This document shows, piece after piece, positions 2,916 through 54,867 of a DNA stretch of 64,000 nucleotides; position 1 is the first letter of the stretch, and every line of letters starts with the position of its first letter. The notes below the pieces were generated by a model. That model ran no database searches. It was not told the origin of the DNA and saw only the letters and a list, made by a program, of their open reading frames with translations. The stretch covers positions 1,382,247 to 1,446,246 of the forward strand of contig CM082594.2 of assembly GCA_040954595.2 (NCBI GenBank), in the 5' to 3' direction. This DNA is from Balanoglossus misakiensis. Its lineage: Eukaryota; Animalia; Hemichordata. A program made the position numbers and the translations under genes.

Positions 2916-3000
2916 GTAGGTAACGCATTCAAATTGATCAAGATATTGTTTGAATGAAGAGGCAATCAAGGATTCATGATACAAGAGAACAATGTTTTAT

Positions 3001-8027: not shown

Positions 8028-8205
8028 GTATACATAACTTACTAACATTTCAGAAAAGGATGTTACAGAATTCTTAGAAACACGCACTCCCTTTATTCCT
8101 TATGATTTAGAGTCATTAAGTGAAAGGTGGAAAGATTTTTGAATATGCTTCGTTCATTCTAAGAATGATCTAATTTCAGGGACTTGTGGATGAATTGTAA
8201 TGTTT

Positions 8206-16791: not shown

Positions 16792-16971
16792 GAGAATGTC
16801 AAGATCCTGGTACACCAGTCAACGGTCAGAGACATGGCAATGATTTCGACATTGGTTCTATAGTGTCATTCAGTTGTGACTATGGATTCACACCAAGCCA
16901 TCCAAACCCTTTGATGTGTGAAGGAGATGTTGTGACTGTGTTGCCAACAACACCTTCTACTACAACTACTG
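16792..16971 (+). CDS. N-terminal three quarters of a split CCP domain
   Basis: ECQDPGTPVNGQRHGNDFDIGSIVSFSCDYGFTPSHPNPLMC then Thr-rich sequence; the W...P.C ending is absent. Confidence 0.85.
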
Positions 16972-18940: not shown

Positions 18941-20274
18941 TCAGTAGGGATTGTGGAACCTTTGAGACTTTTGTAAACGCAACTTGTGAGAAGTACATTG
19001 AGACACCAACTGATGGTACCTGTTCATTTGGAACATTCTACACAAGTATGGTTGCTGGTATGGCCAATTTTCAAGATTCACATGTAAGTATAAAGTTAGT
19101 TCTTGAAAGTCTATGTACCGGTAAATGTTTTGCTCCAGTGTCAATACTGACCAGATTGTCTCCAATTTCTCATTGTGATTTGTAACATTGTTATGAATGA
19201 TTTTATTTTGTCTTGTTTTATGTGTTGCACTGTATTTTTTTAAATTTCTCACCCAAGATTGATTTAATCACTAAATGTACTTGAAAAAAACTGCATACTG
19301 TAGTTTTTCCAGTGTTGTCTAAAGGAGTTTTTTGGTTTGTGTAATTGCAGGTTTGCGGGCAATGCCTGAACGTGATTGGTTCAAATGATGTATCTGTAGT
19401 TGTCCGGGTAACAGACATGTGCATGTACCCGTACTGCATGAGTGATGAAGATGGTCTGGTTCTAAGTCAGGATGCTTACAACATCTTGTCAGATGGTGAA
19501 AGTCCTTCATCTCTTCTTGTATCCTACTCAGTTGTTGCCTGTCCTGAGGATGTCTCTATCAAGTTCAAGGTTTTTGAAACAACACAATTATTCACTAATT
19601 TAGATACCCTTTTCTTTAATTGCTACTTAAAAGTAAATATTTCCTGTAGTTGTCACATCACTGCAAAATTGTTTGAAACCTCACTAGCCACATTTTAAAT
19701 AGTATTTGTAAGATTGAAGTTAAAATTGTCAGGAGTGGTCCATCTGTTTCTTTACTGGAAGTTTAGATCTCTTGGAAATCAAACCAGTCTCAACTGATTT
19801 GGACTAGGGCAGATCCAGTGGGGACTAGGACATTGACAATAATGTGTTGCTCTAATTTCAAAATATTATGACCGACTAGGGACTGTCATTCATTTTTTGA
19901 GTGTACCACATTTTGATTGATTGATTTGTTGATTTAGTTTGCAGAGAGCATTTCTGCATCATTCAGCTTATTAATATTGGATCATCGTTACCCTGTCACC
20001 ACTGTGGAAGTCCACACAACTGGTCTCTGGATTACTCTAGACAGACTCAGTGATAACTTATTTGAACCACCCATTGGTTCTGGTGATATACAAGCCCCTC
20101 TCAATGTCAAGGTCTATTCGGTGTCTGGTAAAATTAACTACAGGGTTAGAGAGTTTCATTTTGGTGGGATTATTGACACCTCCAAGCAATTTCAACATTG
20201 TGAGGATGATGAGCTTGAAGTTACTACACTTCCAGACTTTGGAATAGTTACAACAATCGAGAGTACGCTTGAAG
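18941..20274 (+). CDS. Expansin-like module 1 (intact), exons 18941-19083, 19351-19569, 19938-20274
   Basis: DGTCSFG...VCGQCLNVIG...VRVTDMC..PYC...GLVLS.DAY...VACP...LDHRYPVTTVEV...W.TLDR..DNLF...PLNVKV...IIDTSKQF. Confidence 0.8.
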
Positions 20275-20512
20275 GTAAGATTGTGTTTCAGTTTCATAGT
20301 TTAGGTCCCGTTTGGTATATACCAGTATACATGTATACTATACCATGGGACCTTATGGGATCAGTTTAGTCTGTCTGTATGTATGTACTGTAAAACGGGT
20401 TATTTTCGTGATGGGAAATTTGTTTGCGATATCAATGGAGGCAATTGTTATTATGCGAGGATTAATTTTTGCATTTGCTTATTTTCTTCATGTTTCATTT
20501 CTGCCAAAACAG

Positions 20513-21459
20513 ATGAGATGCAATCTACTCAGGAGGGTCCAACAACATTGCCTGGGTACATTACAACCCGGGGGCCTGAGACTGATTCCTTCACCAGTCG
20601 GTCTACAAGAACTGAAGTGACAAGTGGTACAACAGTTTCATCTGAAGAGATCACAACTGGTCTCCACTCGACCACCCATGTTATAGTCACAGATCAGGAT
20701 GAAGTCAGCTCAGCAATATCTGAGACTTTCACAACGTCAACTCTGTCAACAACAAGCGTCAATCCAACCATATACTTTCAACAGTTGAAGATGAAGAAGA
20801 CACAACCACAGAAACAACATCAAGAACTGATATAGGCCCAACTGCAACAGATGTAACAAGTGCTGAAAGAGCAACTACTGATATCAAGCCTAACCCAACA
20901 ACAGTCGAGCCTGAAGTCACGCCTGATGTTACAGAATATGAAATCAGGTCAACAGAATCAAAGACAAGAATAGTAACAGATGTAGATACAAGTACATCCC
21001 TGCCTACAACTAGTGTCCAAGAACTGACCACCAAACGCACCGAATTTCAATCGAAATCTTCAGAACCACTTTCATCTAAAATATCAACAACAGAGTCTGC
21101 AAGTGTCAATCCAACCATACTTTCAACAGTTGAAGATGAAGAAGACACAACCACAGAGAGAACAGATATAGGCCCAACTGCAACAGATGTAACAAAAGTG
21201 CTCAAAGAGGAACAACTGACATCAAGCCTAACCCTACAACAGCTGAGCCAGTCACACCTGATGTTACAAAGTCTTTGACAACAGAATATGAAATCAGGTC
21301 AACAGAATCCAAAACAAGTACATCCCTGCCTACAACTAGTGTCAAAGAACTGACCACCGAACGCACTGAATTTCAATCGAAATCTTCAGAACCACTTTCA
21401 ACAACTAAAATATCAACAACAAAACCAGTGACACCTTCTCATGATGTAACAATTAACAG
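20513..21459 (+). CDS. Thr/Ser-rich mucin exon, frameshifted, with internal duplication
   Basis: 947 nt. Extra 2, 2 and 4 nt at ~20770, ~21195 and ~21452 relative to the intact paralogous exon 37630-38241. Confidence 0.75.
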
Positions 21460-21799
21460 GTAATTATACTACTTGTAAAAACTACGCATGTAAACTCATC
21501 TTGGGCAGCTAATGGTTGCCACAAAGAAAAAGGTCTTGTACACGTTGGTTGCAATTGCCAGCAACTGTCCAAATGCACACTATTTGGCTGAAATTCAGCA
21601 GAAGTATACAAGTCATGGAGGTGAAGAAAAATACACCTGTTTTTCAAAAATCAGTATTGTTTATGACATATAACATGAAACCATCAATTTTTGTGCATAA
21701 ATTAAGTTTTATGGTTGTGTGATTTTGATTGAACCCAAGATTACATATTGATTGAATATTAAATAATTTATCTTAATACTGGTGTTGTTGTTTTTGCAG

Positions 21800-24700
21800 T
21801 CAGTAAAGATTGTGATACCTTTGAGACTTTTGTAAACGCAACTTGTGAGAAGTACCGTGAGACACCAACTGATGGTACCTGTTCATTTGGAACATTTTAC
21901 ACAAGTATGGTTGCTGGTATGGCCAATTTTCAAGATTTACATGTAAGTATAGATAACGTTAGTTCTGAAAGTCCTTGTACATGATTGGCTGTGATGTCAA
22001 TACTGACCAGATAGTCTCTCATTTTGAGTCATTGTGATTTGTAACAACTTTTGTTATGAATAATTTTATTTCATCGTGTTTGTCTAAGTTTGTGTGTTGC
22101 ACTGTTTTTCTTTGAAATTTCCTCAGCTTAATTTGATTAAGCACTTAAACCAAAACCTGCAGTGTTGTCTAAAGAAGGAGTTAGTTGGTTTGTTGAAATA
22201 GTATACATGCATTTTGATACCTTCATGTGTGATTGCAGGTTTGTGGGCAATGCCTGAACGTGATTGGTTCAAATGATGCATCTGTAGTTGTCCGGGTAAC
22301 AGACATGTGCATGTACCCATACTGCATGATTGATGAAGATGGTCTGGTTCTAAGTGGGGATGCTTACAACATCTTGTCAGATGGTGAAAGTCCTTCATCT
22401 CTTCTTGTATCCTACTCAGTTGTTGCCTGTCCTGAGGATGTCTCTATCAAGTTCAAGGTTTGTGAAACAACACAAGTATTAACTAATTTAGATACCCTTG
22501 TCTTAAATTGCTACTTAAAAGTAAATATTCACTTGTAGTTGTCTTATCACTGCAAAATTGTTTGAAACCTCACAAGCCATCTTCTTAACAGTATTTTTAA
22601 CTCATGATTGTCTATGGGGCCGAGCCTCAACGCATATACACAAACTTTGTGTGTGTGGACACAATGCTCTGAGTTTATCATAGGCAAATAGTGTCTCACA
22701 TTTTTCTCTGTGTGAACCTGGTATGTGTCATTCATTTTGTGAGTGTATCACATATTGATTGATTGATTTGTTTATTTAGTTTGCAGAGAGCATTTCTGCA
22801 TCATTCAGCTTATTAACCCTCTTGCTACCGGGGGTCAAAACCCGTTGGGCCGCCGACTCGTTACGAGACCGCCTCTACACCCGCTGGATTACCAGGCTTT
22901 TTGCCTGAAAATTGGGTTTTTGGAGGGTCATTTTAGCTGCTTTTGAACGTGCTAGACTTCAAGTTTGGCACAGTCCCGTGTCGGCGGGACCTCAAACAAC
23001 AATTAACCGGGTAAAAGTTGTGGGGTCATCGGGTTCGTTCCCCTGGGAGGGGAGCGTCTGTAAACGTCGTTTCGAGGCTTACTTTTACGAAAATAAAGTT
23101 AGTGTGTTAGTACACGCCACATCACGTCACAACAACGACACCATCAGTTATTAGTAGGGTACCCAGGGTGTACCGCCAGGGGTGTTCGGGCACCCCTTCC
23201 CCTGCCACTTTCCTGTAGGGTACGAGTTAGTTCGACACGTAATGCGAACGACTGGACACTGGCGCACAGTGTTCCGCTCTACAGCCGCCTGACAACGACT
23301 CATTCTCGCACACAAGACACACACGGACGTTGTGATAACGACACGTTGGTTAGTTACGCACAGTAGACAGACGTTCATTACGGTGTTAATACGCTATAGT
23401 TTTTTATGGTACAGGGTTGTACCGACACGGTCACAGGTAACCCGCAAGTTCTGCAGGCCCCATTGCACCATTTCGGCCAGGGGCGAGTGTCGAACCGGAC
23501 GACTATTTACACAAGACCCCCGTTACTGTGCGTCATATTAGAGGGATTAACACCACCACAGGTTGCCTCATAAATAGCACTTTATTTCCTAAAAAAGAGT
23601 GATTCGTGCACCGTTACAGTAACATCATACAATCCGTGTTTCAGTGTTTGCAAGTAACCTGTCCGTTTCTCACAGTCTGTGTTTCATTGTCCGTAAATGA
23701 GGCTCAGTCACCTCGTAGCCCTACTCAAGGGCATAATTTAGTGGGGGTCCACAGAAAAAAATGACTAAAGTCCGCGCAACGGGGCTCGTTCAAGACAAGC
23801 CCATGTCACAATCCGTGTTTCAGTGTCCGCAAGTAACCTGTCCGTTTCTCACAGTCCGTGTTTCATTGTCCGTAAATGAGGCTCGGTCACCTCGTAGCCC
23901 TACTCAAGGGCATAATTTAGTGGGGGTCCACAGAAAAAAATGACTAAAGTCCGCGCAAACGGGGCTCGTTCAAGACGAGCCCATGTCACAATCCGTGTTT
24001 CAGTGTCCGCAAGTAACCTGTCCGTTTCTCACAGTCCGTGTTTCATTGTCCGTAAATGAGGCTCGGTCACCTCGTAGCCCTACTCAAGGGCATAATTTAG
24101 TGGGGGTCCACAGAAAAAAATGACTAAAGTCCGCACAAATGCCAGGGCTGGTTCACCGGAAGCCCGTGTCACCCTCTCGGGAGGGGAATAATTTAGGAAT
24201 GGTCCGTGTTTCTGGAACTTCGCCGGAGCGGTTTGTCCCGTCTCGGCTGCCGAACTCGCACATCTCCTTCTGGAAACTGTGTCCCGATGCTCTTCTTTCC
24301 TCGTAGCATCATATGGTGGTGGAACGAGGCGAAGCATTCTCCTTGATGCAAATGCACTTGGCAGAGCGCACATCCCATGACAGTCTCCGAACGCCGTCCA
24401 GAAAGGGTCCTCTTGCCTTCCCTACTGCATAGCTTGCAGGTTTTCTGCCGTCCAGGTAATCTACTTTCGACGTGTTGGGGTATGTTTCCAGGGAAAATGA
24501 AAGAGCTGTCAGTAACTGTGCGCTCTATTTCCCGTACGTTGCCTTGACCACGACTGGTGAATCCGCCAATGAGTTGCTTCCCAACACGTAGGTTGAAGAA
24601 CTTGTGCTTCACCTTGGTCTGGGGGTTAAGGTCTTTGAAACATACGTAAGCATTCGTCAATGCTACATCCATCAGGTACCAGGCCATGTATACCCACCAG

Positions 24701-27700
24701 CGGTTGTTCTTTCGCCCACAGTGGTAGTATTTTCGCTTCTGGTTAGCGCGGTCAACGCCTCCCATGAAGACGCGGTACTTCGACAAACTCAGGGGCACAT
24801 TTCTCTCTTCCTCACCACTGCCAACTGTCTCCGTGTCAATTAGTGGATAAACGTTGTTCAGGATCAACACCTGTGCATTGCTATCCTGATAAGCTGCCAG
24901 GTTGATTCGGCAATCGACTCGGGTGGCTGCCTTCATTTCACCGACCTTCAGTGGAAGCTTCTTCTTTTTCCCGGGGGGAATAAGCATGGGCGGCATACTC
25001 CGATGGTTACGTCGGTTGAAGCTTCCAACCATATACATGCCCATCTCCATCAGTTCTCTCGCAGTTAACACAGTTGTGAAGAGGCTGTCACAGAAGAGGA
25101 TGTGGTTGTACCCGCAGAACGGCTGAACAAGTTCAATCGTTATTCTTTTCACCACTCCCCTCTCCTGTTTTTTCCCGTCATTCCTGTCAAGGTACTTCAC
25201 CCCCAGGTAGGGAGCAAAGTTTGCCACATAGGATGTGACAGAGTCCGCCAACTGCCATACCTTAAAGCCGTCTCTGTCTGGCTTGTGGGGAAGCCTCTGT
25301 TTGAATTTCGAACGTCCTTTGAACTTCACCATGCCTTCATCGATGGAGATTTCCTGTCCCATCTGATAGCTGTGTACGCAACTGTTTACAAGGGGCTCCA
25401 TCCATGGGTTTACTTTATACATTGGGTCGTCCTGACAACGGCGTGACCGTCTGTTCGGGTCAGGGTCTCGTCTTGGATCCTTCTGGGGGTCAGCCAAGTG
25501 GAAATACCGCATCAACCTGTGGTAGCGTTGACGGGTCATGACTGACGAAATGCCAACATTATGCAGGAAAATGTCGCTGGACCAATGGTCGCCCACAGCA
25601 GGCTTGCGGTCAATGCCCATGATGATGACAACGCCCAGGAAGGCTTGCATCTCTCTGTAATTGGTCGCTCGCCACTCAGAGTCGATTTTCTTTGCGATGT
25701 AATGCTGGTGATACGACGCATATTTGTTCGTTTCCTTCACCGCCAGAGATATCATGTCCGGTGATACAAATTTCAGGAAGTATTCCAACTCCCGTGCATG
25801 TGTTGCCATAGTAAACGTGGGTCCACGCTCTTTCTCGAACAGGGGTTCGGAAAATATCTCAGTGTCCTCATGCTGCGAAAGACGCCACTCGTCCCCATCC
25901 TTGGAGGCCTGCCGTATGGCCTCTTCTATTACGGCTTCATTCTCGGAGTCGGACTCCTCAGATGGAGTACCAGGAAATGACAGCTCGTAAAAGTTATCGT
26001 CCTCTGCCGCATCCTCATCAATGTCCGTCACGTTTCCCTCATCCTCCTCAAGGTCATCATCAGGCCGTCTATATCGGAACAAGCCTGTTTTGGCGTCCAA
26101 AATCTTTTCGGGCTCAAACTCAGGTGGACTGTAGCGCACCTTTTTTTTACTGCTTTCTTGGATGATCCCACCTTCCCAGTGGAAGTCGAGGCGACTGCCT
26201 GATGAGGGCTCATCTGAGCAGCAGATGGCACTTCTGGGGAGGTCTCGTGACTATCATCTGTCGTACATGGGGTCACTGGCGGGGAACTGGCTGGTTCGCC
26301 CGCCTCTGGGGTCGTCTGATCGCTCCCGCGTGGAACTTCTGTCGGGGTACTGGCTGGTTCGCCCGCCTTCGCAGTCACCTCATCACTCCTGGGTGGAGCT
26401 TCTGTCTCACCGTCCGAGTCGACAACGGGTCGATCGGACTTGCGCTTACGTTTCCCGCCAGACTTCTGCTGCTTACTGGATTGTAAGTCAGCCTCTGAAG
26501 TCACCTCGTCACTCCTGGGTGGAGCTTCTGTCGGGGTACTGGCTGGTTCGCCCGCTTCCGCAGTCACCTCATCACTCCGGGGTGGAGCTTCTGTCTCATC
26601 GGCCGAGTCGACAACGGGTCGACTGGACTTGCGCTTACGTTTCCCGCCAGGCTTCTCCGTCTCCTCAAATCTGACGCTCAAAAGGCGTTTCTTTGCCTTC
26701 TTTTTCTTGGCCTTTCCCTTCCTAACAGGGGAGTCTACATCATAGCGATCGCTGCCCGTTCCACTGGATTCCGGGTTCCGAATCTTTCGGGTTGCCTTCA
26801 AAAAACTCTTTCGGTCCGTCAAACTCATGGTCTGTAGTGGTACTGACAAAACTGTCCACGAAACACCCCTTTTATTAGCAGTCGCACATGAACCTGTGAC
26901 AGGCGTTCTCCCATCTAATTGGACGCCTAATATATAGGTACGCAAACACGTGACACAAAAATATGTCCGCAGGCAATCGGACCTATGGGGCTCCTCAAAA
27001 TTCCCGCCAGAAATGGAAATCTGGAACGGCAATTTGCGTAACAATACAGAAAGTATTGATCGACCATGACGTTAAAATTTCGCATCTGTGCGGCCTAAGC
27101 AGAACTCATGTCCCCTATGTTACGCAAATGCAAGGCACGCCTTTCGCCCGTGTCTGTACATACCCCTCGGTAACACGCAGCACCGAGGAACCGTTACGGC
27201 ACACACCCGTCCAATTCACCAGCCTGAGTTACAGGCATCCGCACACTGTGTCGTTCTCTAATGGTGAGTAACGCAAAACCCACCGGACCGAGAGCGTATT
27301 CGTCGGCTTTGTTTACGTCAAAATGCACACCCAGTTGCTTTTTACACACTCGTGCCGCTGGCTACGCAAAGCCAAGTCCCGTCAAAACCTGTCCGATCCA
27401 ATGTGTCGCGAACCGGGGTGTAAACGACGAGTTGGTCTACATCGTCGGCCGTTACGTCAAAATGCACACCCAGTCGCTTTTTACACACTTGTGCCGCTGG
27501 CTACGCAAAGCCGAGGTCCCGTCAAAACCTGTCCGATCCAATGTGTCGCGAACCGGGGTGTAAACGACGAGTCGGTCTACATCGTCGGCCGTTACGTCAA
27601 AATGCACACCCAGTCGCTTTTTACACACTCGTGCCGCTGGCTACGCAAAGCCAAGTCCCGTCAAAACCTGTCCGATCCAATGTGTCGCGAACCGGGGTGT

Positions 27701-28692
27701 AAACGACGAGTCGGTCTACATCGTCGGCCGTTACGTCAAAATGCACACCCAGTCGTTTTTACACACTTGTGCCGCTGGCTACGCAAGCCAAGTCCCGTCA
27801 AAGCCTGTCCGTACCAAGTTTTCTTTCACGAGTAATTGTAGGCTACGAGTCGGTCGCGAAAGATATGGCCTGCGACGCACGCACGCCAAGACGTCGGTCA
27901 TCGGTTCGCACCATCGGCAAAAATCGTCATGTTTTCCCGAGTCGATCCCAAAACGCACTCTCCTAAACAGGCACCCACGAGTGCGTCCGACACGTCTGGC
28001 CATCGAAAAGGTTGATACCCTATGTCGTTGTGGAATCGTCTGCTATGGAAAACTATGCATCGCTGTCAATTACGTTTTTGCGGACACATAAAAAACGGTC
28101 TCCCCAGGGTCGGAATGACCGGCGGAATTTGCCTCTAAGGATAGTGTGCTATTTGTAGTTCAAGGCAAATAACCCTGTCGAGACTTTCCTGTCCTAACAG
28201 ATTTTGCCCTCAAAACGGTAGTTCAAAGACAACCCGTTATAGCGAAGCGCACGCAAACGCCTAGAGACTCCAGCGGGTCGGTGAATCATATCGATTCATA
28301 CCGATTAGGTCATTCATCACTCGCCAACGTTCGACTTCTACCCACACCGGAAATCGGGCGGTCTGCTACGGACTCGACAGCGTTAGGGTTAATATTGGAT
28401 CATCGTTACCCTGTCACCACTGTGGAAGTCCACACAACTGGTCCCTGGATTACTCTAGACAGACTCAGTGATAACTTATTTGAACCACCCATTGGTTCTG
28501 GTGATATACAAGCCCCTCTCAATGTCAAGGTCTATTCGGTGTCTGGTAAAATTAACTACAGGGTTAGAGAGTTTCAGTTTGGTGAGATTATTGACACCTC
28601 CAAGCAATTTCGACATTGTGAGGATGATGAGCTTGAAGTTACTACACTTCCAGACTTTGGAATAGTTACAACAATCGAGAGTACGCTTGAAG
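21800..28692 (+). CDS. Expansin-like module 2, exons 21800-21942, 22239-22457, 22780-22816/28393-28692 (third exon interrupted by piggyBac)
   Basis: Homologous to module 1; the exon is split at TTAA in the TTA-TTA-ATA codons. Confidence 0.8.
23581..23586 (-). promoter_or_regulatory. Candidate polyadenylation signal of the transposase transcript
   Basis: AATAAA on the minus strand ~600 nt after the stop codon. Confidence 0.4.
23629..24135. repeat. ~180-bp tandem repeat (~2.8 units) downstream of the transposase
   Basis: CAATCCGTGTTTCAGTG...TGACTAAAGTCCGC units; same array at 32047-32553. Confidence 0.9.
24193..26139 (-). CDS. piggyBac transposase ORF2 (PGBD4-like DDD domain + C-terminal Cys-rich finger); no ATG until about residue 111
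   Basis: SIDEGM, FCDSLF, MGGVDRANQ; CKLC...CALCQVHLHQGECF..FH; acidic N-terminal segment. Confidence 0.95.
   Translation of the reverse strand: MRYSPPEFEPEKILDAKTGLFRYRRPDDDLEEDEGNVTDIDEDAAEDDNFYELSFPGTPSEESDSENEAVIEEAIRQASKDGDEWRLSQHEDTEIFSEPLFEKERGPTFTMATHARELEYFLKFVSPDMISLAVKETNKYASYHQHYIAKKIDSEWRATNYREMQAFLGVVIIMGIDRKPAVGDHWSSDIFLHNVGISSVMTRQRYHRLMRYFHLADPQKDPRRDPDPNRRSRRCQDDPMYKVNPWMEPLVNSCVHSYQMGQEISIDEGMVKFKGRSKFKQRLPHKPDRDGFKVWQLADSVTSYVANFAPYLGVKYLDRNDGKKQERGVVKRITIELVQPFCGYNHILFCDSLFTTVLTARELMEMGMYMVGSFNRRNHRSMPPMLIPPGKKKKLPLKVGEMKAATRVDCRINLAAYQDSNAQVLILNNVYPLIDTETVGSGEEERNVPLSLSKYRVFMGGVDRANQKRKYYHCGRKNNRWWVYMAWYLMDVALTNAYVCFKDLNPQTKVKHKFFNLRVGKQLIGGFTSRGQGNVREIERTVTDSSFIFPGNIPQHVESRLPGRQKTCKLCSREGKRTLSGRRSETVMGCALCQVHLHQGECFASFHHHMMLRGKKSIGTQFPEGDVRVRQPRRDKPLRRSSRNTDHS
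26028..26828 (-). CDS. piggyBac ORF1, basic/acidic repetitive protein (266 aa from ATG 26828), probable transposase N-terminus
   Basis: ACCATGA Kozak context, TATATA ~100 nt upstream, NLS-like KAKKKKAKKR and KRKRK; overlaps ORF2 in the -1 frame. Confidence 0.7.
   Translation of the reverse strand: MSLTDRKSFLKATRKIRNPESSGTGSDRYDVDSPVRKGKAKKKKAKKRLLSVRFEETEKPGGKRKRKSSRPVVDSADETEAPPRSDEVTAEAGEPASTPTEAPPRSDEVTSEADLQSSKQQKSGGKRKRKSDRPVVDSDGETEAPPRSDEVTAKAGEPASTPTEVPRGSDQTTPEAGEPASSPPVTPCTTDDSHETSPEVPSAAQMSPHQAVASTSTGKVGSSKKAVKKRCATVHLSLSPKRFWTPKQACSDIDGLMMTLRRMRET
27313..27815. repeat. ~139-bp tandem repeat (~3.6 units) upstream of ORF1
   Basis: TTACGTCAAAATGCACACCCAG at 27313, 27452, 27592 and 27731; same array at 35731-36233. 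Confidence 0.9.
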
Positions 28693-28930
28693 GTAAGATT
28701 GTGTTTCAGTTTCATAGTTTAGGTCCCGTTTGGTATATACCAGTATACATGTATACTATACCATGGGACCTTATGGGATCAGTTTAGTCTGTCTGTATGT
28801 ATGTACTGTAAAACGGGTTATTTTCGTGATGGGAAATTTGTTTGCGATATCAATGGAGGCAATTGTTATTATGCGAGGATTAATTTTTGCATTTGCTTAT
28901 TTTCTTCATGTTTCATTTCTGCCAAAACAG

Positions 28931-29877
28931 ATGAGATGCAATCTACTCAGGAGGGTCCAACAACATTGCCTGGGTACATTACAACCCGGGGGCCTGAGAC
29001 TGATTCCTTCACCAGTCGGTCTACAAGAACTGAAGTGACAAGTGGTACAACAGTTTCATCTGAAGAGATCACAACTGGTCTCCACTCGACCACCCATGTT
29101 ATAGTCACAGATCAGGATGAAGTCAGCTCAGCAATATCTGAGACTTTCACAACGTCAACTCTGTCAACAACAAGCGTCAATCCAACCATATACTTTCAAC
29201 AGTTGAAGATGAAGAAGACACAACCACAGAAACAACATCAAGAACTGATATAGGCCCAACTGCAACAGATGTAACAAGTGCTGAAAGAGCAACTACTGAT
29301 ATCAAGCCTAACCCAACAACAGTCGAGCCTGAAGTCACGCCTGATGTTACAGAATATGAAATCAGGTCAACAGAATCAAAGACAAGAATAGTAACAGATG
29401 TAGATACAAGTACATCCCTGCCTACAACTAGTGTCCAAGAACTGACCACCAAACGCACCGAATTTCAATCGAAATCTTCAGAACCACTTTCATCTAAAAT
29501 ATCAACAACAGAGTCTGCAAGTGTCAATCCAACCATACTTTCAACAGTTGAAGATGAAGAAGACACAACCACAGAGAGAACAGATATAGGCCCAACTGCA
29601 ACAGATGTAACAAAAGTGCTCAAAGAGGAACAACTGACATCAAGCCTAACCCTACAACAGCTGAGCCAGTCACACCTGATGTTACAAAGTCTTTGACAAC
29701 AGAATATGAAATCAGGTCAACAGAATCCAAAACAAGTACATCCCTGCCTACAACTAGTGTCAAAGAACTGACCACCGAACGCACTGAATTTCAATCGAAA
29801 TCTTCAGAACCACTTTCAACAACTAAAATATCAACAACAAAACCAGTGACACCTTCTCATGATGTAACAATTAACAG
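28931..29877 (+). CDS. Mucin exon duplicate (frameshifted)
   Basis: Copy of 20513-21459 at +8418. Confidence 0.75.
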
Positions 29878-30217
29878 GTAATTATACTACTTGTAAAAAC
29901 TACGCATGTAAACTCATCTTGGGCAGCTAATGGTTGCCACAAAGAAAAAGGTCTTGTACACGTTGGTTGCAATTGCCAGCAACTGTCCAAATGCACACTA
30001 TTTGGCTGAAATTCAGCAGAAGTATACAAGTCATGGAGGTGAAGAAAAATACACCTGTTTTTCAAAAATCAGTATTGTTTATGACATATAACATGAAACC
30101 ATCAATTTTTGTGCATAAATTAAGTTTTATGGTTGTGTGATTTTGATTGAACCCAAGATTACATATTGATTGAATATTAAATAATTTATCTTAATACTGG
30201 TGTTGTTGTTTTTGCAG

Positions 30218-33200
30218 TCAGTAAAGATTGTGATACCTTTGAGACTTTTGTAAACGCAACTTGTGAGAAGTACCGTGAGACACCAACTGATGGTACCTGT
30301 TCATTTGGAACATTTTACACAAGTATGGTTGCTGGTATGGCCAATTTTCAAGATTTACATGTAAGTATAGATAACGTTAGTTCTGAAAGTCCTTGTACAT
30401 GATTGGCTGTGATGTCAATACTGACCAGATAGTCTCTCATTTTGAGTCATTGTGATTTGTAACAACTTTTGTTATGAATAATTTTATTTCATCGTGTTTG
30501 TCTAAGTTTGTGTGTTGCACTGTTTTTCTTTGAAATTTCCTCAGCTTAATTTGATTAAGCACTTAAACCAAAACCTGCAGTGTTGTCTAAAGAAGGAGTT
30601 AGTTGGTTTGTTGAAATAGTATACATGCATTTTGATACCTTCATGTGTGATTGCAGGTTTGTGGGCAATGCCTGAACGTGATTGGTTCAAATGATGCATC
30701 TGTAGTTGTCCGGGTAACAGACATGTGCATGTACCCATACTGCATGATTGATGAAGATGGTCTGGTTCTAAGTGGGGATGCTTACAACATCTTGTCAGAT
30801 GGTGAAAGTCCTTCATCTCTTCTTGTATCCTACTCAGTTGTTGCCTGTCCTGAGGATGTCTCTATCAAGTTCAAGGTTTGTGAAACAACACAAGTATTAA
30901 CTAATTTAGATACCCTTGTCTTAAATTGCTACTTAAAAGTAAATATTCACTTGTAGTTGTCTCATCACTGCAAAATTGTTTGAAACCTCACAAGCCATCT
31001 TCTTAACAGTATTTTTAACTCATGATTGTCTATGGGGCCGAGCCTCAACGCATATACACAAACTTTGTGTGTGTGGACACAATGCTCTGAGTTTATCATA
31101 GGCAAATAGTGTCTCACATTTTTCTCTGTGTGAACCTGGTATGTGTCATTCATTTTGTGAGTGTATCACATATTGATTGATTGATTTGTTTATTTAGTTT
31201 GCAGAGAGCATTTCTGCATCATTCAGCTTATTAACCCTCTTGCTACCGGGGGTCAAAACCCGTTGGGCCGCCGACTCGTTACGAGACCGCCTCTACACCC
31301 GCTGGATTACCAGGCTTTTTGCCTGAAAATTGGGTTTTTGGAGGGTCATTTTAGCTGCTTTTGAACGTGCTAGACTTCAAGTTTGGCACAGTCCCGTGTC
31401 GGCGGGACCTCAAACAACAATTAACCGGGTAAAAGTTGTGGGGTCATCGGGTTCGTTCCCCTGGGAGGGGAGCGTCTGTAAACGTCGTTTCGAGGCTTAC
31501 TTTTACGAAAATAAAGTTAGTGTGTTAGTACACGCCACATCACGTCACAACAACGACACCATCAGTTATTAGTAGGGTACCCAGGGTGTACCGCCAGGGG
31601 TGTTCGGGCACCCCTTCCCCTGCCACTTTCCTGTAGGGTACGAGTTAGTTCGACACGTAATGCGAACGACTGGACACTGGCGCACAGTGTTCCGCTCTAC
31701 AGCCGCCTGACAACGACTCATTCTCGCACACAAGACACACACGGACGTTGTGATAACGACACGTTGGTTAGTTACGCACAGTAGACAGACGTTCATTACG
31801 GTGTTAATACGCTATAGTTTTTTATGGTACAGGGTTGTACCGACACGGTCACAGGTAACCCGCAAGTTCTGCAGGCCCCATTGCACCATTTCGGCCAGGG
31901 GCGAGTGTCGAACCGGACGACTATTTACACAAGACCCCCGTTACTGTGCGTCATATTAGAGGGATTAACACCACCACAGGTTGCCTCATAAATAGCACTT
32001 TATTTCCTAAAAAAGAGTGATTCGTGCACCGTTACAGTAACATCATACAATCCGTGTTTCAGTGTTTGCAAGTAACCTGTCCGTTTCTCACAGTCTGTGT
32101 TTCATTGTCCGTAAATGAGGCTCAGTCACCTCGTAGCCCTACTCAAGGGCATAATTTAGTGGGGGTCCACAGAAAAAAATGACTAAAGTCCGCGCAACGG
32201 GGCTCGTTCAAGACAAGCCCATGTCACAATCCGTGTTTCAGTGTCCGCAAGTAACCTGTCCGTTTCTCACAGTCCGTGTTTCATTGTCCGTAAATGAGGC
32301 TCGGTCACCTCGTAGCCCTACTCAAGGGCATAATTTAGTGGGGGTCCACAGAAAAAAATGACTAAAGTCCGCGCAAACGGGGCTCGTTCAAGACGAGCCC
32401 ATGTCACAATCCGTGTTTCAGTGTCCGCAAGTAACCTGTCCGTTTCTCACAGTCCGTGTTTCATTGTCCGTAAATGAGGCTCGGTCACCTCGTAGCCCTA
32501 CTCAAGGGCATAATTTAGTGGGGGTCCACAGAAAAAAATGACTAAAGTCCGCACAAATGCCAGGGCTGGTTCACCGGAAGCCCGTGTCACCCTCTCGGGA
32601 GGGGAATAATTTAGGAATGGTCCGTGTTTCTGGAACTTCGCCGGAGCGGTTTGTCCCGTCTCGGCTGCCGAACTCGCACATCTCCTTCTGGAAACTGTGT
32701 CCCGATGCTCTTCTTTCCTCGTAGCATCATATGGTGGTGGAACGAGGCGAAGCATTCTCCTTGATGCAAATGCACTTGGCAGAGCGCACATCCCATGACA
32801 GTCTCCGAACGCCGTCCAGAAAGGGTCCTCTTGCCTTCCCTACTGCATAGCTTGCAGGTTTTCTGCCGTCCAGGTAATCTACTTTCGACGTGTTGGGGTA
32901 TGTTTCCAGGGAAAATGAAAGAGCTGTCAGTAACTGTGCGCTCTATTTCCCGTACGTTGCCTTGACCACGACTGGTGAATCCGCCAATGAGTTGCTTCCC
33001 AACACGTAGGTTGAAGAACTTGTGCTTCACCTTGGTCTGGGGGTTAAGGTCTTTGAAACATACGTAAGCATTCGTCAATGCTACATCCATCAGGTACCAG
33101 GCCATGTATACCCACCAGCGGTTGTTCTTTCGCCCACAGTGGTAGTATTTTCGCTTCTGGTTAGCGCGGTCAACGCCTCCCATGAAGACGCGGTACTTCG

Positions 33201-36200
33201 ACAAACTCAGGGGCACATTTCTCTCTTCCTCACCACTGCCAACTGTCTCCGTGTCAATTAGTGGATAAACGTTGTTCAGGATCAACACCTGTGCATTGCT
33301 ATCCTGATAAGCTGCCAGGTTGATTCGGCAATCGACTCGGGTGGCTGCCTTCATTTCACCGACCTTCAGTGGAAGCTTCTTCTTTTTCCCGGGGGGAATA
33401 AGCATGGGCGGCATACTCCGATGGTTACGTCGGTTGAAGCTTCCAACCATATACATGCCCATCTCCATCAGTTCTCTCGCAGTTAACACAGTTGTGAAGA
33501 GGCTGTCACAGAAGAGGATGTGGTTGTACCCGCAGAACGGCTGAACAAGTTCAATCGTTATTCTTTTCACCACTCCCCTCTCCTGTTTTTTCCCGTCATT
33601 CCTGTCAAGGTACTTCACCCCCAGGTAGGGAGCAAAGTTTGCCACATAGGATGTGACAGAGTCCGCCAACTGCCATACCTTAAAGCCGTCTCTGTCTGGC
33701 TTGTGGGGAAGCCTCTGTTTGAATTTCGAACGTCCTTTGAACTTCACCATGCCTTCATCGATGGAGATTTCCTGTCCCATCTGATAGCTGTGTACGCAAC
33801 TGTTTACAAGGGGCTCCATCCATGGGTTTACTTTATACATTGGGTCGTCCTGACAACGGCGTGACCGTCTGTTCGGGTCAGGGTCTCGTCTTGGATCCTT
33901 CTGGGGGTCAGCCAAGTGGAAATACCGCATCAACCTGTGGTAGCGTTGACGGGTCATGACTGACGAAATGCCAACATTATGCAGGAAAATGTCGCTGGAC
34001 CAATGGTCGCCCACAGCAGGCTTGCGGTCAATGCCCATGATGATGACAACGCCCAGGAAGGCTTGCATCTCTCTGTAATTGGTCGCTCGCCACTCAGAGT
34101 CGATTTTCTTTGCGATGTAATGCTGGTGATACGACGCATATTTGTTCGTTTCCTTCACCGCCAGAGATATCATGTCCGGTGATACAAATTTCAGGAAGTA
34201 TTCCAACTCCCGTGCATGTGTTGCCATAGTAAACGTGGGTCCACGCTCTTTCTCGAACAGGGGTTCGGAAAATATCTCAGTGTCCTCATGCTGCGAAAGA
34301 CGCCACTCGTCCCCATCCTTGGAGGCCTGCCGTATGGCCTCTTCTATTACGGCTTCATTCTCGGAGTCGGACTCCTCAGATGGAGTACCAGGAAATGACA
34401 GCTCGTAAAAGTTATCGTCCTCTGCCGCATCCTCATCAATGTCCGTCACGTTTCCCTCATCCTCCTCAAGGTCATCATCAGGCCGTCTATATCGGAACAA
34501 GCCTGTTTTGGCGTCCAAAATCTTTTCGGGCTCAAACTCAGGTGGACTGTAGCGCACCTTTTTTTTACTGCTTTCTTGGATGATCCCACCTTCCCAGTGG
34601 AAGTCGAGGCGACTGCCTGATGAGGGCTCATCTGAGCAGCAGATGGCACTTCTGGGGAGGTCTCGTGACTATCATCTGTCGTACATGGGGTCACTGGCGG
34701 GGAACTGGCTGGTTCGCCCGCCTCTGGGGTCGTCTGATCGCTCCCGCGTGGAACTTCTGTCGGGGTACTGGCTGGTTCGCCCGCCTTCGCAGTCACCTCA
34801 TCACTCCTGGGTGGAGCTTCTGTCTCACCGTCCGAGTCGACAACGGGTCGATCGGACTTGCGCTTACGTTTCCCGCCAGACTTCTGCTGCTTACTGGATT
34901 GTAAGTCAGCCTCTGAAGTCACCTCGTCACTCCTGGGTGGAGCTTCTGTCGGGGTACTGGCTGGTTCGCCCGCTTCCGCAGTCACCTCATCACTCCGGGG
35001 TGGAGCTTCTGTCTCATCGGCCGAGTCGACAACGGGTCGACTGGACTTGCGCTTACGTTTCCCGCCAGGCTTCTCCGTCTCCTCAAATCTGACGCTCAAA
35101 AGGCGTTTCTTTGCCTTCTTTTTCTTGGCCTTTCCCTTCCTAACAGGGGAGTCTACATCATAGCGATCGCTGCCCGTTCCACTGGATTCCGGGTTCCGAA
35201 TCTTTCGGGTTGCCTTCAAAAAACTCTTTCGGTCCGTCAAACTCATGGTCTGTAGTGGTACTGACAAAACTGTCCACGAAACACCCCTTTTATTAGCAGT
35301 CGCACATGAACCTGTGACAGGCGTTCTCCCATCTAATTGGACGCCTAATATATAGGTACGCAAACACGTGACACAAAAATATGTCCGCAGGCAATCGGAC
35401 CTATGGGGCTCCTCAAAATTCCCGCCAGAAATGGAAATCTGGAACGGCAATTTGCGTAACAATACAGAAAGTATTGATCGACCATGACGTTAAAATTTCG
35501 CATCTGTGCGGCCTAAGCAGAACTCATGTCCCCTATGTTACGCAAATGCAAGGCACGCCTTTCGCCCGTGTCTGTACATACCCCTCGGTAACACGCAGCA
35601 CCGAGGAACCGTTACGGCACACACCCGTCCAATTCACCAGCCTGAGTTACAGGCATCCGCACACTGTGTCGTTCTCTAATGGTGAGTAACGCAAAACCCA
35701 CCGGACCGAGAGCGTATTCGTCGGCTTTGTTTACGTCAAAATGCACACCCAGTTGCTTTTTACACACTCGTGCCGCTGGCTACGCAAAGCCAAGTCCCGT
35801 CAAAACCTGTCCGATCCAATGTGTCGCGAACCGGGGTGTAAACGACGAGTTGGTCTACATCGTCGGCCGTTACGTCAAAATGCACACCCAGTCGCTTTTT
35901 ACACACTTGTGCCGCTGGCTACGCAAAGCCGAGGTCCCGTCAAAACCTGTCCGATCCAATGTGTCGCGAACCGGGGTGTAAACGACGAGTCGGTCTACAT
36001 CGTCGGCCGTTACGTCAAAATGCACACCCAGTCGCTTTTTACACACTCGTGCCGCTGGCTACGCAAAGCCAAGTCCCGTCAAAACCTGTCCGATCCAATG
36101 TGTCGCGAACCGGGGTGTAAACGACGAGTCGGTCTACATCGTCGGCCGTTACGTCAAAATGCACACCCAGTCGTTTTTACACACTTGTGCCGCTGGCTAC

Positions 36201-37110
36201 GCAAGCCAAGTCCCGTCAAAGCCTGTCCGTACCAAGTTTTCTTTCACGAGTAATTGTAGGCTACGAGTCGGTCGCGAAAGATATGGCCTGCGACGCACGC
36301 ACGCCAAGACGTCGGTCATCGGTTCGCACCATCGGCAAAAATCGTCATGTTTTCCCGAGTCGATCCCAAAACGCACTCTCCTAAACAGGCACCCACGAGT
36401 GCGTCCGACACGTCTGGCCATCGAAAAGGTTGATACCCTATGTCGTTGTGGAATCGTCTGCTATGGAAAACTATGCATCGCTGTCAATTACGTTTTTGCG
36501 GACACATAAAAAACGGTCTCCCCAGGGTCGGAATGACCGGCGGAATTTGCCTCTAAGGATAGTGTGCTATTTGTAGTTCAAGGCAAATAACCCTGTCGAG
36601 ACTTTCCTGTCCTAACAGATTTTGCCCTCAAAACGGTAGTTCAAAGACAACCCGTTATAGCGAAGCGCACGCAAACGCCTAGAGACTCCAGCGGGTCGGT
36701 GAATCATATCGATTCATACCGATTAGGTCATTCATCACTCGCCAACGTTCGACTTCTACCCACACCGGAAATCGGGCGGTCTGCTACGGACTCGACAGCG
36801 TTAGGGTTAATATTGGATCATCGTTACCCTGTCACCACTGTGGAAGTCCACACAACTGGTCCCTGGATTACTCTAGACAGACTCAGTGATAACTTATTTG
36901 AACCACCCATTGGTTCTGGTGATATACAAGCCCCTCTCAATGTCAAGGTCTATTCGGTGTCTGGTAAAATTAACTACAGGGTTAGAGAGTTTCAGTTTGG
37001 TGAGATTATTGACACCTCCAAGCAATTTCGACATTGTGAGGATGATGAGCTTGAAGTTACTACACTTCCAGACTTTGGAATAGTTACAACAATCGAGAGT
37101 ACGCTTGAAG
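30218..37110 (+). CDS. Expansin-like module 3, exons 30218-30360, 30657-30875, 31198-31234/36811-37110 (piggyBac-interrupted)
   Basis: Copy of module 2 at +8418. Confidence 0.8.
32611..34557 (-). CDS. piggyBac transposase ORF2, copy 2
   Basis: Identical translation to 24193-26139. Confidence 0.95.
   Translation of the reverse strand: MRYSPPEFEPEKILDAKTGLFRYRRPDDDLEEDEGNVTDIDEDAAEDDNFYELSFPGTPSEESDSENEAVIEEAIRQASKDGDEWRLSQHEDTEIFSEPLFEKERGPTFTMATHARELEYFLKFVSPDMISLAVKETNKYASYHQHYIAKKIDSEWRATNYREMQAFLGVVIIMGIDRKPAVGDHWSSDIFLHNVGISSVMTRQRYHRLMRYFHLADPQKDPRRDPDPNRRSRRCQDDPMYKVNPWMEPLVNSCVHSYQMGQEISIDEGMVKFKGRSKFKQRLPHKPDRDGFKVWQLADSVTSYVANFAPYLGVKYLDRNDGKKQERGVVKRITIELVQPFCGYNHILFCDSLFTTVLTARELMEMGMYMVGSFNRRNHRSMPPMLIPPGKKKKLPLKVGEMKAATRVDCRINLAAYQDSNAQVLILNNVYPLIDTETVGSGEEERNVPLSLSKYRVFMGGVDRANQKRKYYHCGRKNNRWWVYMAWYLMDVALTNAYVCFKDLNPQTKVKHKFFNLRVGKQLIGGFTSRGQGNVREIERTVTDSSFIFPGNIPQHVESRLPGRQKTCKLCSREGKRTLSGRRSETVMGCALCQVHLHQGECFASFHHHMMLRGKKSIGTQFPEGDVRVRQPRRDKPLRRSSRNTDHS
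34446..35246 (-). CDS. piggyBac ORF1, copy 2
   Basis: Identical translation to 26028-26828. Confidence 0.7.
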   Translation of the reverse strand: MSLTDRKSFLKATRKIRNPESSGTGSDRYDVDSPVRKGKAKKKKAKKRLLSVRFEETEKPGGKRKRKSSRPVVDSADETEAPPRSDEVTAEAGEPASTPTEAPPRSDEVTSEADLQSSKQQKSGGKRKRKSDRPVVDSDGETEAPPRSDEVTAKAGEPASTPTEVPRGSDQTTPEAGEPASSPPVTPCTTDDSHETSPEVPSAAQMSPHQAVASTSTGKVGSSKKAVKKRCATVHLSLSPKRFWTPKQACSDIDGLMMTLRRMRET

Positions 37111-37629
37111 GTAAGATTGTGTTTCAGTTTCATAGTTTAGGTCCAATTTGGTATATACCAGTATACATATATACTATACTATGGGACCTTATGGGATCAA
37201 GGTAGTCTGTCTGTCTGTATGTCTGTATGCCTGTCTGTCTATCTGTATGTATGTACTGTTAAACGGGTCATTTTCGTGACGAAATTGTTCATGATATCAA
37301 TGGAGGCAAATGTCTCGCGAGGATTAATTTTCATGATCTCTTACTTTTACTGGATAGTTATTTCTGAAAAATATTTTATGTGACTTATTATTTTCATGTA
37401 TTTTGGCTATCGCATATTTCACGAAAAATTTAATGCTCGCGAAAATAACCCGTTTTACAGTATGTTTGTATGTATGGATGGATGGATGCATGGATGCATG
37501 CATGTATGTATGTATGAATGTAGGTATGAATGTAGGTATGAATGTATATTAAATGCAAGTAGTGGACATTCTATGGTTTGTGAGAAATCAGAAGCGCTTA
37601 TTCTTCATGTATCCTTCCTGCCAAAACAG

Positions 37630-38241
37630 ACGAGATGCAATCTACTCAGGAGGGTCCAACAACATTGCCTGGGTACATTACAACCCGGGGGCCTGAGACT
37701 GATTCCTTCACCAGTCGGTCTACAAGAACTGAAGTGACAAGTGGAACAACAGTTTCATCTGAAGAGATCACAACTGGTATCCACTCGACCACCCATGTTA
37801 AAGTCACAGATCAGGATGAAGTCAGCTCAGCAATATCCGAGACTGTCACAACTGCAACTCTATCAACAACAAGCGTCAATCCTACGATACTTTCAACGAT
37901 GGAAGATGAAGAAGACACCACAGAAACAGCAACAAGAACTGATATAGGCCCAACTGCAACAGATGTAACAAGTGCTCAAAGAGCAACTACTGATATCAAG
38001 CCTAACCCAACAACAGCTGAGCCAGTCACACAAAAGTCTTTGACAACAGAATATGAAATCAGGTCAACAGAATCCAAAACAAGAATAGTAACAGATGTAG
38101 ATACAAGTACATCCCTGCCTACAACTAGTGTCCAAGAACTGACCACCGAACGCACTGAATTTCAATCGAAATCTTCGGAACCACTTTCAACTAAAATATC
38201 AACAACAAAACCAGTGACACCTTCTCATGATGTAACAACAG
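37630..38241 (+). CDS. Thr/Ser-rich mucin exon (intact, 612 nt)
   Basis: Open frame DEMQSTQEGPTT...SHDVTT; phase 1-1. Confidence 0.85.
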
Positions 38242-38620
38242 GTAATTATACTACGTATAAAGACTACACATGTAAACTCATCTTGGGCAGCTAATGGTTG
38301 CCACTCAGAATAAAAATAGCTAAAAGATACAAAAATGGACCTTTCAGACATTATGAAAAAAAGTCTTGTACATTGTTTGCAATTGCCAGCAACTGTCCAA
38401 ATGCACACTATTTGGCTGAAATTCAGCAGAAGTGTACAAGTCATGGAGCCTTGGAGGCGAAGAAAAATACGCCTGTTTTTCAAAAATCAGTATCGTTTAT
38501 GACATATAACATTACACCCTCAATTTTTGTGCATAAATTATTTTTTATAGTTGTGTGATTCTGATTGAAACCAAGATTACATATTGATTGAATATATGTT
38601 AACATATGTTGTTGTTGCAG

Positions 38621-40143
38621 TCAGTAGAGATTGTGGAACCTTTGAGACTTTTGTAAATGCAACTTGTGAGAAGTACAGTGAGACACCAACTGATGGTACC
38701 TGTTCATTTGGAACATTTTACACAAGTATGGTTGCTGGTATGGCCAATTTTCAAGATTCACATGTAAGTATAGATAACGTTAGTTCTTGAAAGACTATGT
38801 ACATGATTGGCTGTGATGTCAATACTGACCGGATGGTCTGTCATTTCGAGTCATTGTGATTTGTAACAATTTTTGTTATGAATAATTTTATTTCATCTTG
38901 TTCGTTTTTGTGTGTTGCGCTGTTTTTTTAATTTTCTCAGCTAAGATTGATATAATCGCTTTGTATTTGAAGAAACCCTGCTGGCTTTAGTACTTCCAGT
39001 GTTGTCTAAAGAAGGAGATTTTGGTTTCTGTGATTGCAGGTTTGTGGGCAATGCCTGAACGTGATTGGTTCAAATGATGTATCTGTAGTTGTCCGGGTAA
39101 CAGACATGTGCATGTACCCGTACTGCATGATTGATGAAGATGGTCTGGTTCTAAGTGAGGATGCTTACAACATCTTGTCAGATGGTGAAAGTCCTTCATC
39201 TCTTTTTGTATCCTACTCTGTTATTGCCTGTCCTGAAGATGTCTCCATCAAGTTCAAGGTTTGTGAAACAAAACAATTATTAACTAATTAATATACCCTT
39301 GTCTTTAATTTTCACATCTTGGCGAACTTGTTTGAAACCTCCCTAGCCATTTTTTTAAGTATTTGTAAGATTGAAGTTTAAATTGTCAAGAGTATTCATC
39401 TGTTTCTTTACTGGAAGTTTAGATCTCCTGGAAATCAAACCAGTCTCAACTGATTTGGACAAGGGAAGATCCAGTGGGGACTAGGTCATTGACAATGATT
39501 TGTTGCAAATACTGTAAAACGGGAAATTTTCACGCCAGGAAATTTTCGCAATATCAAAAGAGGCAACTGTTACGCGAGGATTAATTTTGGCGTTCTTGTA
39601 TTTCACTAACTGCATCGTTAAATCACACGACATTTATTTTCACTTCTCTTTTAGATCTTGCGTATTTTGCGAAAATTTATGCTCGCGAAAATAACCCATT
39701 TTACAGTAAGTCTTGCTCTAAATTTCAAAGTATTAGGACCAACCAGGGACTGTGTTGTTCATCTTTTTAGTGTACTGCATATTGATTGATTGATTTGTTT
39801 ATTTAGTTTGCAGAGAGCATTTCTGCATCATTCAGCTTATTAATATTGGATCATCGTTACCCTGTCACCACTGTGGAAGTCCACACAACTGGTCCCTGGA
39901 TTACTCTAGACAGACTCAGTGATAACTTATTTGAACAACCCATTGGTTCTGGTGATATACAAGCCCCTCTCAATGTCAAGGTCTATTCGGTGTGTGGTAA
40001 AATTAACTACAGGGTTACAGACTTTGAGTTTGATGAGATTATTGACACCTCCAAGCAATTTCGACATTGTGAGGATGATGAGCTTGAAGTTACTACACTT
40101 CCAGACTTTGGAATAGTTACAACAATTGAGAGTACGCTTGAAG
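38621..40143 (+). CDS. Expansin-like module 4 (intact), exons 38621-38763, 39040-39258, 39807-40143
   Basis: Same exon lengths (143/219/337 nt) and motifs as module 1. Confidence 0.8.
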
Positions 40144-40690
40144 GTAAGATGGTTTCATTTTATACAATATGTAATTAGTTTACTGTATAACATAGGTCGA
40201 TGTTGCTGATGATTTCAATGGAGTGTAGCTGAATTTGTTACATTAGTTGTGATATCAGATATTGTGTTTTGCACACCAATATCTGGTACACTCTTATGCA
40301 AAATTTTCGCAAGAGGAAATGTTCATGATATCAAATGTGGCAACTGTTACGTGGCGATTAATTTTCACGTTCTGGTATTTCACTGCATCGTTATCTCTGA
40401 AAACCATAAGCGACTTTTTTTTTCACCAGTAAATTTATCGTTCGTGAAAATTTCCTATTTTACTGTATTTTGAATAAGAAATCTCAACACCCTCATAAAC
40501 AATTGCATTAAAGAAAGCAATAGAATAATAACACAATATCATTTGAATCACACACCGGGATGAGAATACCTTGAAATTGTCTCCTGCCAGGAACATTGAT
40601 TCAATACTGTTCATGTTAGTGGAGAACAATATAACATTAGATTTCCTTGTTCTAGATTATTCAAATTGTAATGTTCATTTTTATCAACAG

Positions 40691-43808: not shown

Positions 43809-43907
43809 CAGCCGCAGTGGAAGTTGTGAGGAAAAGAAGGGATGCATCTGAACAGTCATCATTTCTCACTAATGCTAAATGGAATGGCACTGCACCTGTT
43901 TGTATTG
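43809..43907 (+). CDS. Furin site + C-terminal end of the split CCP
   Basis: VVRKRRDASEQSSFLTNAKWNGTAPVCI. Confidence 0.85.

Positions 43908-49243: not shown

Positions 49244-54867
<5,624 letters not shown>

Follow-up and report, generated by a model that had tools for sequence, protein, structure and literature searches.

We analysed a 64,000-nt window of the genome of the acorn worm Balanoglossus misakiensis (assembly GCA_040954595.2, contig CM082594.2, positions 1,382,247 to 1,446,246 of the forward strand; coordinates below are those of this window). A module repeated within its uninflatable-like gene (649-63750, forward strand) is a two-domain expansin, in which a DPBB domain (D1) is followed by a CBM63 domain (D2) as in the EXLX type. 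We consider it probable, with ample room for doubt, that a bacterial-type expansin was shuffled into this gene from a stand-alone one, that it now serves as a disulfide-stabilised, acidic bead on mucin stalks with its ligand changed or lost, and that the gene copy in the window is dead.

The module occurs at four sites, all on the forward strand, as three exons of 143, 219 and 337 nt with AG/GT ends and phases 1-0-0-1. At each site it is flanked by Thr/Ser-rich exons of a gene that encodes CUB, Sushi, EGF, HYR, ephrin-receptor-like and LamG/pentraxin domains. Copy 1 (exons 18941-19083, 19351-19569 and 19938-20274; 54 bits against the EXLX profile described below) and copy 4 (38621-38763, 39040-39258 and 39807-40143; 56 bits) are intact. 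Copy 2 (21800-28692, exons starting at 21800, 22239 and 22780) and copy 3 (30218-37110, exons starting at 30218, 30657 and 31198) are identical in protein sequence, and exon 3 of each is split by a piggyBac element, the one in copy 3 (31235-36810) being identical to that in copy 2. The coordinates and splice ends of the three-exon unit are those of the original prediction, which also rightly described an intron-bearing module of an animal gene, here with symmetric 1-1 phases; it had counted four phase-compatible copies, of which two, copies 1 and 4, are intact. An 8,418-nt tandem duplication (19971-28810 versus 28389-37227, 99.84% identical) contains copies 2 and 3, and copy 3 is a duplicate of copy 2 that is either very recent or an assembly artefact. 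Synonymous divergence between copies 1, 2 and 4 (2.8-5.0%) lies below their intron divergence (11-19%), so exon-limited gene conversion may be its source. The surrounding forward-strand mucin exons include two intact ones of phase 1-1 by the exon-frame check (17181-17480 and 18082-18240), a third intact phase 1-1 exon (37630-38241), which is also matched by contigs of two other runs (X1 and X2), a frameshifted one with 18 stops (20513-21459) and its duplicate, likewise with 18 stops (28931-29877), and one with a one-base frameshift and a stop near its end (40691-41301), where an X1/X2 contig differs and is in frame.

The identity of the module was assessed with a profile of bacterial EXLX proteins, built from a motif scan that gave 120 loci and 76 usable domains; the motif slightly favours a match to D2, and the match to D1 is independent of it. 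The spliced window modules score 51-56 bits over almost the full profile length, with copy 4 reaching 56.2 bits over profile positions 21-206, against 5.6 bits for the best of 1000 shuffles. Exon 2 matches DPBB_1 of Pfam under the gathering score (E 0.002), and the ortholog from Saccoglossus kowalevskii passes it (31 versus 28.8). Among PDB sequences the top-ranked is an EXLX for exon 2 (E 0.4) and YoaJ for exon 3 (phmmer, E 0.005). Exon 3 alone has no match in Pfam, and the Atlas assigns it to clusters of Expansin_C at 0.91, the recognition value being low. In a Foldseek search with a structural model of exon 3 (predicted local distance difference test, pLDDT, 77.5), expansins and Phl p 2 rank highest (best E 2.5e-3). 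Exon 3 is the part of the window that was modelled, and the evidence for the fold of the whole module comes from a model of Saccoglossus module 3 (pLDDT 82.7). This model aligns with BsEXLX1 (2bh0) at a Foldseek E of 6e-12, a template modelling (TM) score of 0.81 and a Z of 20 over 194 residues, and its residues 2-108 align to DPBB proteins. The predicted structure thus supports an expansin fold, and together with the profile scores it bears out the DPBB and CBM63-like pattern recognised earlier. Word-based protein searches, confined to proteins of at most 2,000 residues and hence out of reach of the ortholog, gave no match among 48 candidates for exon 3 and 42 for exon 2; exon 3 found no locus in a genome-contig collection, and exon 2 none among plasmids.

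The likeness to solved structures extends to bacterial EXLX proteins (BsEXLX1/YoaJ, 2bh0 and 3d30; Streptomyces 9ms5) and to Talaromyces 7wvr, with which the module shares the D1-D2 order, a length of about 205 residues, TM scores of 0.79-0.81, a Z of 20 and the Asp71 column. It differs from them in being encoded by three exons within a giant animal protein, in the changed columns Thr12, Asp82, W125, W126 and Y157, and in its low identity (20-25%).

A profile search of 1.84 billion representatives clustered at 50% identity, a level at which further orthologs may sit behind the Saccoglossus representative, gave 2,831 matches; the listing comprised 150 of them, and 22 of the listed ones were looked up by name. 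The top match is a RefSeq model of S. kowalevskii, XP_077862127.1 (4,825 residues, 'uncharacterized protein LOC100378937'). It is colinear with the gene over the window, its host blocks averaging 54% identity (33 blocks), and at the equivalent position it carries three expansin modules between mucin stretches, 42-45% identical to those of the window. The two genes agree in the site of their mucin-spaced modules, in the residue losses described below, and in the RKRR motif and split Sushi end; they differ in that the three Saccoglossus modules were amplified separately and lie in an uninterrupted model, whereas the window copy is broken. The locus is thus of host type, with spliceosomal introns in the window gene and an architecture common to the ortholog.

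Pfam domains were matched in 22 of the 30 host stretches scanned, and together with the colinear ortholog they support the uninflatable-like character that had been proposed for the host. The gene follows a single-pass CLECT, triple CUB, Sushi, HYR, EGF and LamG architecture, in which the CLECT, signal and transmembrane parts lie beyond the window and were read by eye from the ortholog, whose C-terminal end has a hydrophobic, transmembrane-like stretch. Orthology to Drosophila Uninflatable (Uif) was judged from domain content only: Uif likewise has CLECT, three CUB, Sushi, HYR and EGF domains and is a single-pass apical protein (PMC3340373 and PMC12867482), and it differs in its two FA58C domains and in having no reported mucin-expansin array. 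FA58C was absent from the 14 Pfam families matched in XP_077862127.1 at E 0.01. A second tandem duplication in the window (4154-6164 and 6160-8170, 99.95% over 2,006 nt) adds a second, in-frame set of the two exons for the third CUB domain; in the ortholog, CUB domains number three.

The array is inserted after an N-terminal part of a Sushi domain (16792-16971, forward strand; Pfam Sushi positions 1-46 of 56; ortholog residues 1128-1178), which has three Cys, lacks the Trp-x-Cys end and runs into Thr-rich sequence. Beyond the array, two forward-strand exons (42337-43339) encode a Cys-containing domain that is conserved in the ortholog and has no Pfam or Atlas match. They are followed by a forward-strand exon (43809-43907, 50% identical to ortholog residues 2973-2998) with a furin-type RKRR site and then a Trp...Pro-x-Cys end. 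This piece scores only 0.9 bits alone as a Sushi domain, and by its motif it likely completes the split one. Because in both species Sushi stops after its third Cys before the array and the Trp...Pro-x-Cys end follows RKRR, the array likely sits in the loop of a single Sushi domain. Further Cys-containing domains that are without a Pfam match and conserved in the ortholog lie at 45757-47078 and 63000-63252. Furin-type basic sites are found near 43830 and 63190, after two of these Pfam-less domains, so the host protein may be cut into pieces there.

After the ortholog, the next matches are stand-alone expansins from Ptychodera and Saccoglossus. Glandiceps was added by a third search, in which three of 46 matches were named animals, all of them acorn worms. 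Stand-alone two-module expansins are thus present in three acorn-worm genera: Saccoglossus (APU50764.1, 'expansin-yoaj protein-like protein 170', and XP_006812919.2), Ptychodera (XP_070533744.1) and Glandiceps (LOC144434331). They form one clade with the embedded modules, and their module 1 shares an insertion and the loss of Asp82 with them; they differ in their small size and signal-like N-terminus, and two of them end in a hydrophobic tail. By eye, the tail of the twin expansins P0153 and P0159 resembles a glycosylphosphatidylinositol (GPI) anchor signal, and the Ptychodera protein has an acidic linker in its place.

In BsEXLX1, D71, Y73 and D82 of D1 are needed, and binding proceeds via W125, W126 and Y157 of D2 (PMC11040781, PMC5072189). 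We aligned the six embedded modules (three from the window, three from Saccoglossus) with 52 rows from outside acorn worms. In the latter, Thr12 and Asp82 are each kept in 48 of 52, and aromatic residues occupy position 125 in 46, position 126 in all 52 and position 157 in 47. All six embedded modules keep Asp71, and all six have Val in the Asp82 column and Glu in the Thr12 column; their Tyr73 column holds Cys, as it does in 46 of the 52 other rows. The W125/W126/Y157 triad is absent from all six, being replaced by Ser, a gap and Asp in the window and by Ser-Pro, Ala and Asn in Saccoglossus, and a shift of the register by one would give at most one Phe in the D2 platform. The embedded module has an isoelectric point (pI) of 4.3-4.5, nine or ten Cys, and one Trp at a core position. 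In the stand-alone proteins, D82 is lost from module 1 in 3/3, and module 2 is canonical or nearly so: Thr12, the aromatic triad and Asp82 are kept, except that two Saccoglossus entries have Asn for Asp82 where the third has Asp.

The residues that mark a wall-loosening expansin (Thr12 and Asp82 in D1, the platform in D2) are therefore missing from the embedded modules. With Asp82 and the aromatic triad absent from six of six, cellulose binding by them is doubtful. Since 62 columns are invariant across the window and Saccoglossus lineages, the embedded module has been under long constraint, which was likely not for gripping cellulose. The earlier idea of a multivalent polysaccharide-binding arm is weakened by the absence of Thr12, Asp82 and W125/W126/Y157 in all six modules, each of these being kept in 43-51 of the 52 other rows. 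The interpretation is further weakened in that no more than two copies are intact and the window gene is probably dead. By analogy with Uif, which localises apically (PMC12867482) and has putative carbohydrate-binding CLECT and FA58C domains (PMC3340373), the host would be an apical single-pass glycocalyx protein. Cleavage at RKRR would release the N-terminal arm with the array into the surface mucus or leave it loosely tethered, and the beads would most likely be spacers and units of adhesion or recognition for a ligand other than crystalline cellulose.

It is nevertheless conceivable, if rather unlikely, that the embedded modules are still multivalent glycan binders with a remodelled surface, directed at wall polymers of algae or bacteria in the feeding mucus. 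Asp71 and all core Cys are kept in six of six modules, and the derived columns are themselves invariant (Glu at Thr12, Val at Asp82, Asp for Asn before HRYP, and two new Tyr). A hydrogen bond links the neighbouring residues Thr12 and Asp82, and it may be enough for the site to be electronegative (PMC5072189); Glu could therefore take the place of the lost Asp82. The putative carbohydrate-binding FA58C of Uif would fit such a role, the ortholog having no Pfam match to it. Set against this are the absence of the BsEXLX1-type aromatic binding platform, the single Trp at a core position and the low pI. In a bolder form, to which we give little credence, a domesticated bacterial expansin rebuilt in the split Sushi of Uninflatable would be a new class of surface lectin, with Glu at Thr12 replacing the lost Asp82, and borne on a cleavable mucin arm in numbers that differ between lineages, to sort microbes or algae in the feeding mucus; the stand-alone, possibly GPI-anchored twin would loosen ingested walls, making this the first true D1-D2 expansin system of animals.

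The origin of the module was examined in trees sampled from 225 domains, of which 64 were chosen (all acorn-worm rows, the best-scoring neighbours, some named bacteria and random rows); removal of 20 rows with long branches, near-duplicates or odd composition left 44 for the careful tree. In this tree all 11 acorn-worm domains form one clade (support 99/98) among bacterial EXLX, the embedded modules group with module 1 of the stand-alone proteins (95/97), and the window and Saccoglossus copies are reciprocally monophyletic (99/95 and 98/87). A quick tree of all 64 rows differs only in drawing a long amoebozoan row into the acorn-worm clade. The sister group of the clade, which is nested among bacterial rows, is weakly supported; its named neighbours are Bacteroidota, myxobacteria and deltaproteobacteria, and most neighbours are unnamed. 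Two indel characters agree with the grouping in the tree: a one-residue insertion is present in 12 of 12 acorn-worm domains and in 10 of 159 scorable others, and a second insertion in 3/3 first modules, five of six embedded modules (one read from the alignment), none of the second modules and one of 40 scorable others.

Bacterial EXLX ancestry by horizontal transfer is likely the best reading of these relationships. Under it, a single acquisition from bacteria in the acorn-worm lineage would have given a secreted two-module protein that kept the canonical site in its second module. The first module, already degenerate, would then have been recruited into the Sushi loop of the uninflatable-like membrane protein, where its copies multiplied separately in each lineage. 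The original prediction had a horizontally acquired, intronised module shuffled into the host gene; the immediate source was likely a stand-alone acorn-worm expansin gene and no microbe directly.

Vertical descent from an early eukaryote or animal, with loss in most animals, would dispense with horizontal transfer, and we regard it as unlikely. Expansins are recorded in amoebozoa, stramenopiles, bivalves and Oikopleura (10.1101/637728, section 5), a table in PMC6626399 has a row for an Exaiptasia expansin joined to a chitin-binding domain, and amoebozoan proteins are among the matches of our profile search. The nearest named relatives are bacterial, however, with 41-45% identity (Bacteroidota, Hyalangium, Deltaproteobacteria), the amoebozoan row falls outside the acorn-worm clade in the 44-row tree, and the only animals among the named matches are acorn worms (3/46 in the third search). 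Together with the Saccoglossus entry in GenBank, the bivalve, Oikopleura and Exaiptasia records also widen the initial view that animal expansins are mainly those of nematodes.

The state of the window copy was judged from 61 exons, nine of which are broken. Six lesions lie outside the repeat units: a frameshift in a Sushi exon (16195-16375), the frameshift and stop in the mucin exon at 40691-41301, a phase gap (49343/50723), a lost acceptor with a stop in one exon (52810-52826), a DUF3504 element within a coding exon (59993-62620), and about 120 ortholog residues that have no match after 63252. Because of these six lesions the window copy is probably a non-functional, dead allele or pseudogene. 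X1/X2 contigs, which are of low depth and come from two runs of one other sample in one study, span 39207-40126 and 40097-41543 and bridge copy 4 to the next mucin exon. They do not cover the piggyBac elements, a gap that is uninformative at this depth. One of these contigs keeps the frame across the lesion at 41281, which makes it probable that there is a working allele or paralog.

Several observations count against the history and fate that we favour, namely a bacterial expansin shuffled in from a stand-alone gene and a dead copy in the window. The frame of the X1/X2 contig at 41281 is one, and two of the frameshifts lie in short homopolymers and are possible assembly errors. The ratio of nonsynonymous to synonymous substitution between the copies (0.57-0.92) is not significantly below 1 in an underpowered comparison. 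The N-terminal 40 residues of the module model are poor (pLDDT 50-60), which makes the Thr12 assignment tentative. In approximately unbiased (AU) tests, a clade of stand-alone modules without the embedded ones was not rejected (p 0.27), nor was a separate acquisition of the embedded modules (p 0.13); the embedded modules stand on a long stem (1.93). The rows from outside acorn worms came from top matches and the motif scan, and other eukaryotic and animal expansins were barely sampled. The microbial, horizontal origin put forward in the original prediction is supported by the nesting among bacterial EXLX in the best tree, with the alternatives not rejected by the AU tests.

That the window gene is functional, its indels being assembly errors and its broken exons skipped to give a two-module protein, is improbable. 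Most broken exons are of phase 1-1 and could be skipped, copy 1 could be spliced in frame to the mucin exon at 37630 and on to copy 4, the two near-perfect tandem duplications hint at assembly faults, and the X1/X2 contig keeps the frame at 41281. Homopolymer error would not account for two transposons lodged in coding exons, for a substituted acceptor and an in-frame stop in the same exon, or for two missing blocks of exons.

Microbial contamination or a mis-join, a stated worry for animal expansins (10.1101/637728), is hardly credible and was rejected, given spliceosomal introns of the module that contain host repeats, its GC content at third codon positions of 0.35-0.37 (0.35 in host exons), contigs of separate runs that bridge it to a host mucin exon, and a Saccoglossus ortholog of matching architecture, short of both assemblies erring alike.

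The EXLX fold, domesticated foreign domains and uninflatable-like mosaics are each of a known kind, and by its residues the module is an expansin in structure that lacks the marks of wall loosening. Nematode expansin-like proteins differ in their reversed domain order (10.1101/637728), and Exaiptasia 'Expansin-YoaJ' is another expansin-type domain fused to an animal module (PMC6626399). According to section 5 of the 2019 survey that names bivalves and Oikopleura, the few annotated animal expansins were unconfirmed against contamination (10.1101/637728). For acorn worms, intron-bearing modules at the same site of the ortholog in two species and stand-alone genes in three genera answer this doubt. 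The literature that we searched, in which most subscription papers were beyond reach, holds no account of acorn-worm expansins or of an uninflatable fusion. The word 'expansin' does not occur in the main text of the hemichordate genome paper (PMC4729200) or in two of its four supplementary files; the supplement with its transfer candidates may mention it. In this case a likely foreign domain would have gained introns, come to be flanked by those of phase 1, been shuffled as exons into a conserved developmental membrane protein and lost its active surface, and the pairing of a canonical stand-alone with a degenerate embedded module makes both origin and change of function directly testable. Its interest is tempered by a window copy that is probably dead, by a function that is predicted only, and by the stand-alone Saccoglossus entry in GenBank, already named expansin-yoaj-like.

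The elements that split copies 2 and 3 (22817-28392 and 31235-36810, reverse strand) are 5.6-kb, TTAA-flanked transposons of the piggyBac family (DDE_Tnp_1_7, E 8e-67) with 0 differences in 5,580 nt. The DDE open reading frame (ORF) of the element in copy 2 has 685 codons (24196-26250, reverse strand), and a repetitive 347-codon ORF that overlaps it upstream has no Pfam match. The terminal repeats are imperfect, and internal tandem arrays have units of about 180 nt (23629-24139) and about 140 nt (27313-27811). A Crypton-like element (about 60145-62557) with hairpins at both ends is inserted in a host Sushi exon; it has DUF3504 and phage-integrase-like matches, and its two ORFs are separated by a single stop. 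At least two abundant palindromic families resembling miniature inverted-repeat transposable elements (MITEs) occur in introns, for example at 143-330, 2997-3353, 5428-5804 and 63539-63645, and one such copy abuts the point of the missing exons before 63646. A long intronic trinucleotide repeat of the CAT/CAC type (57625-57780) gives rise to a false poly-His ORF.

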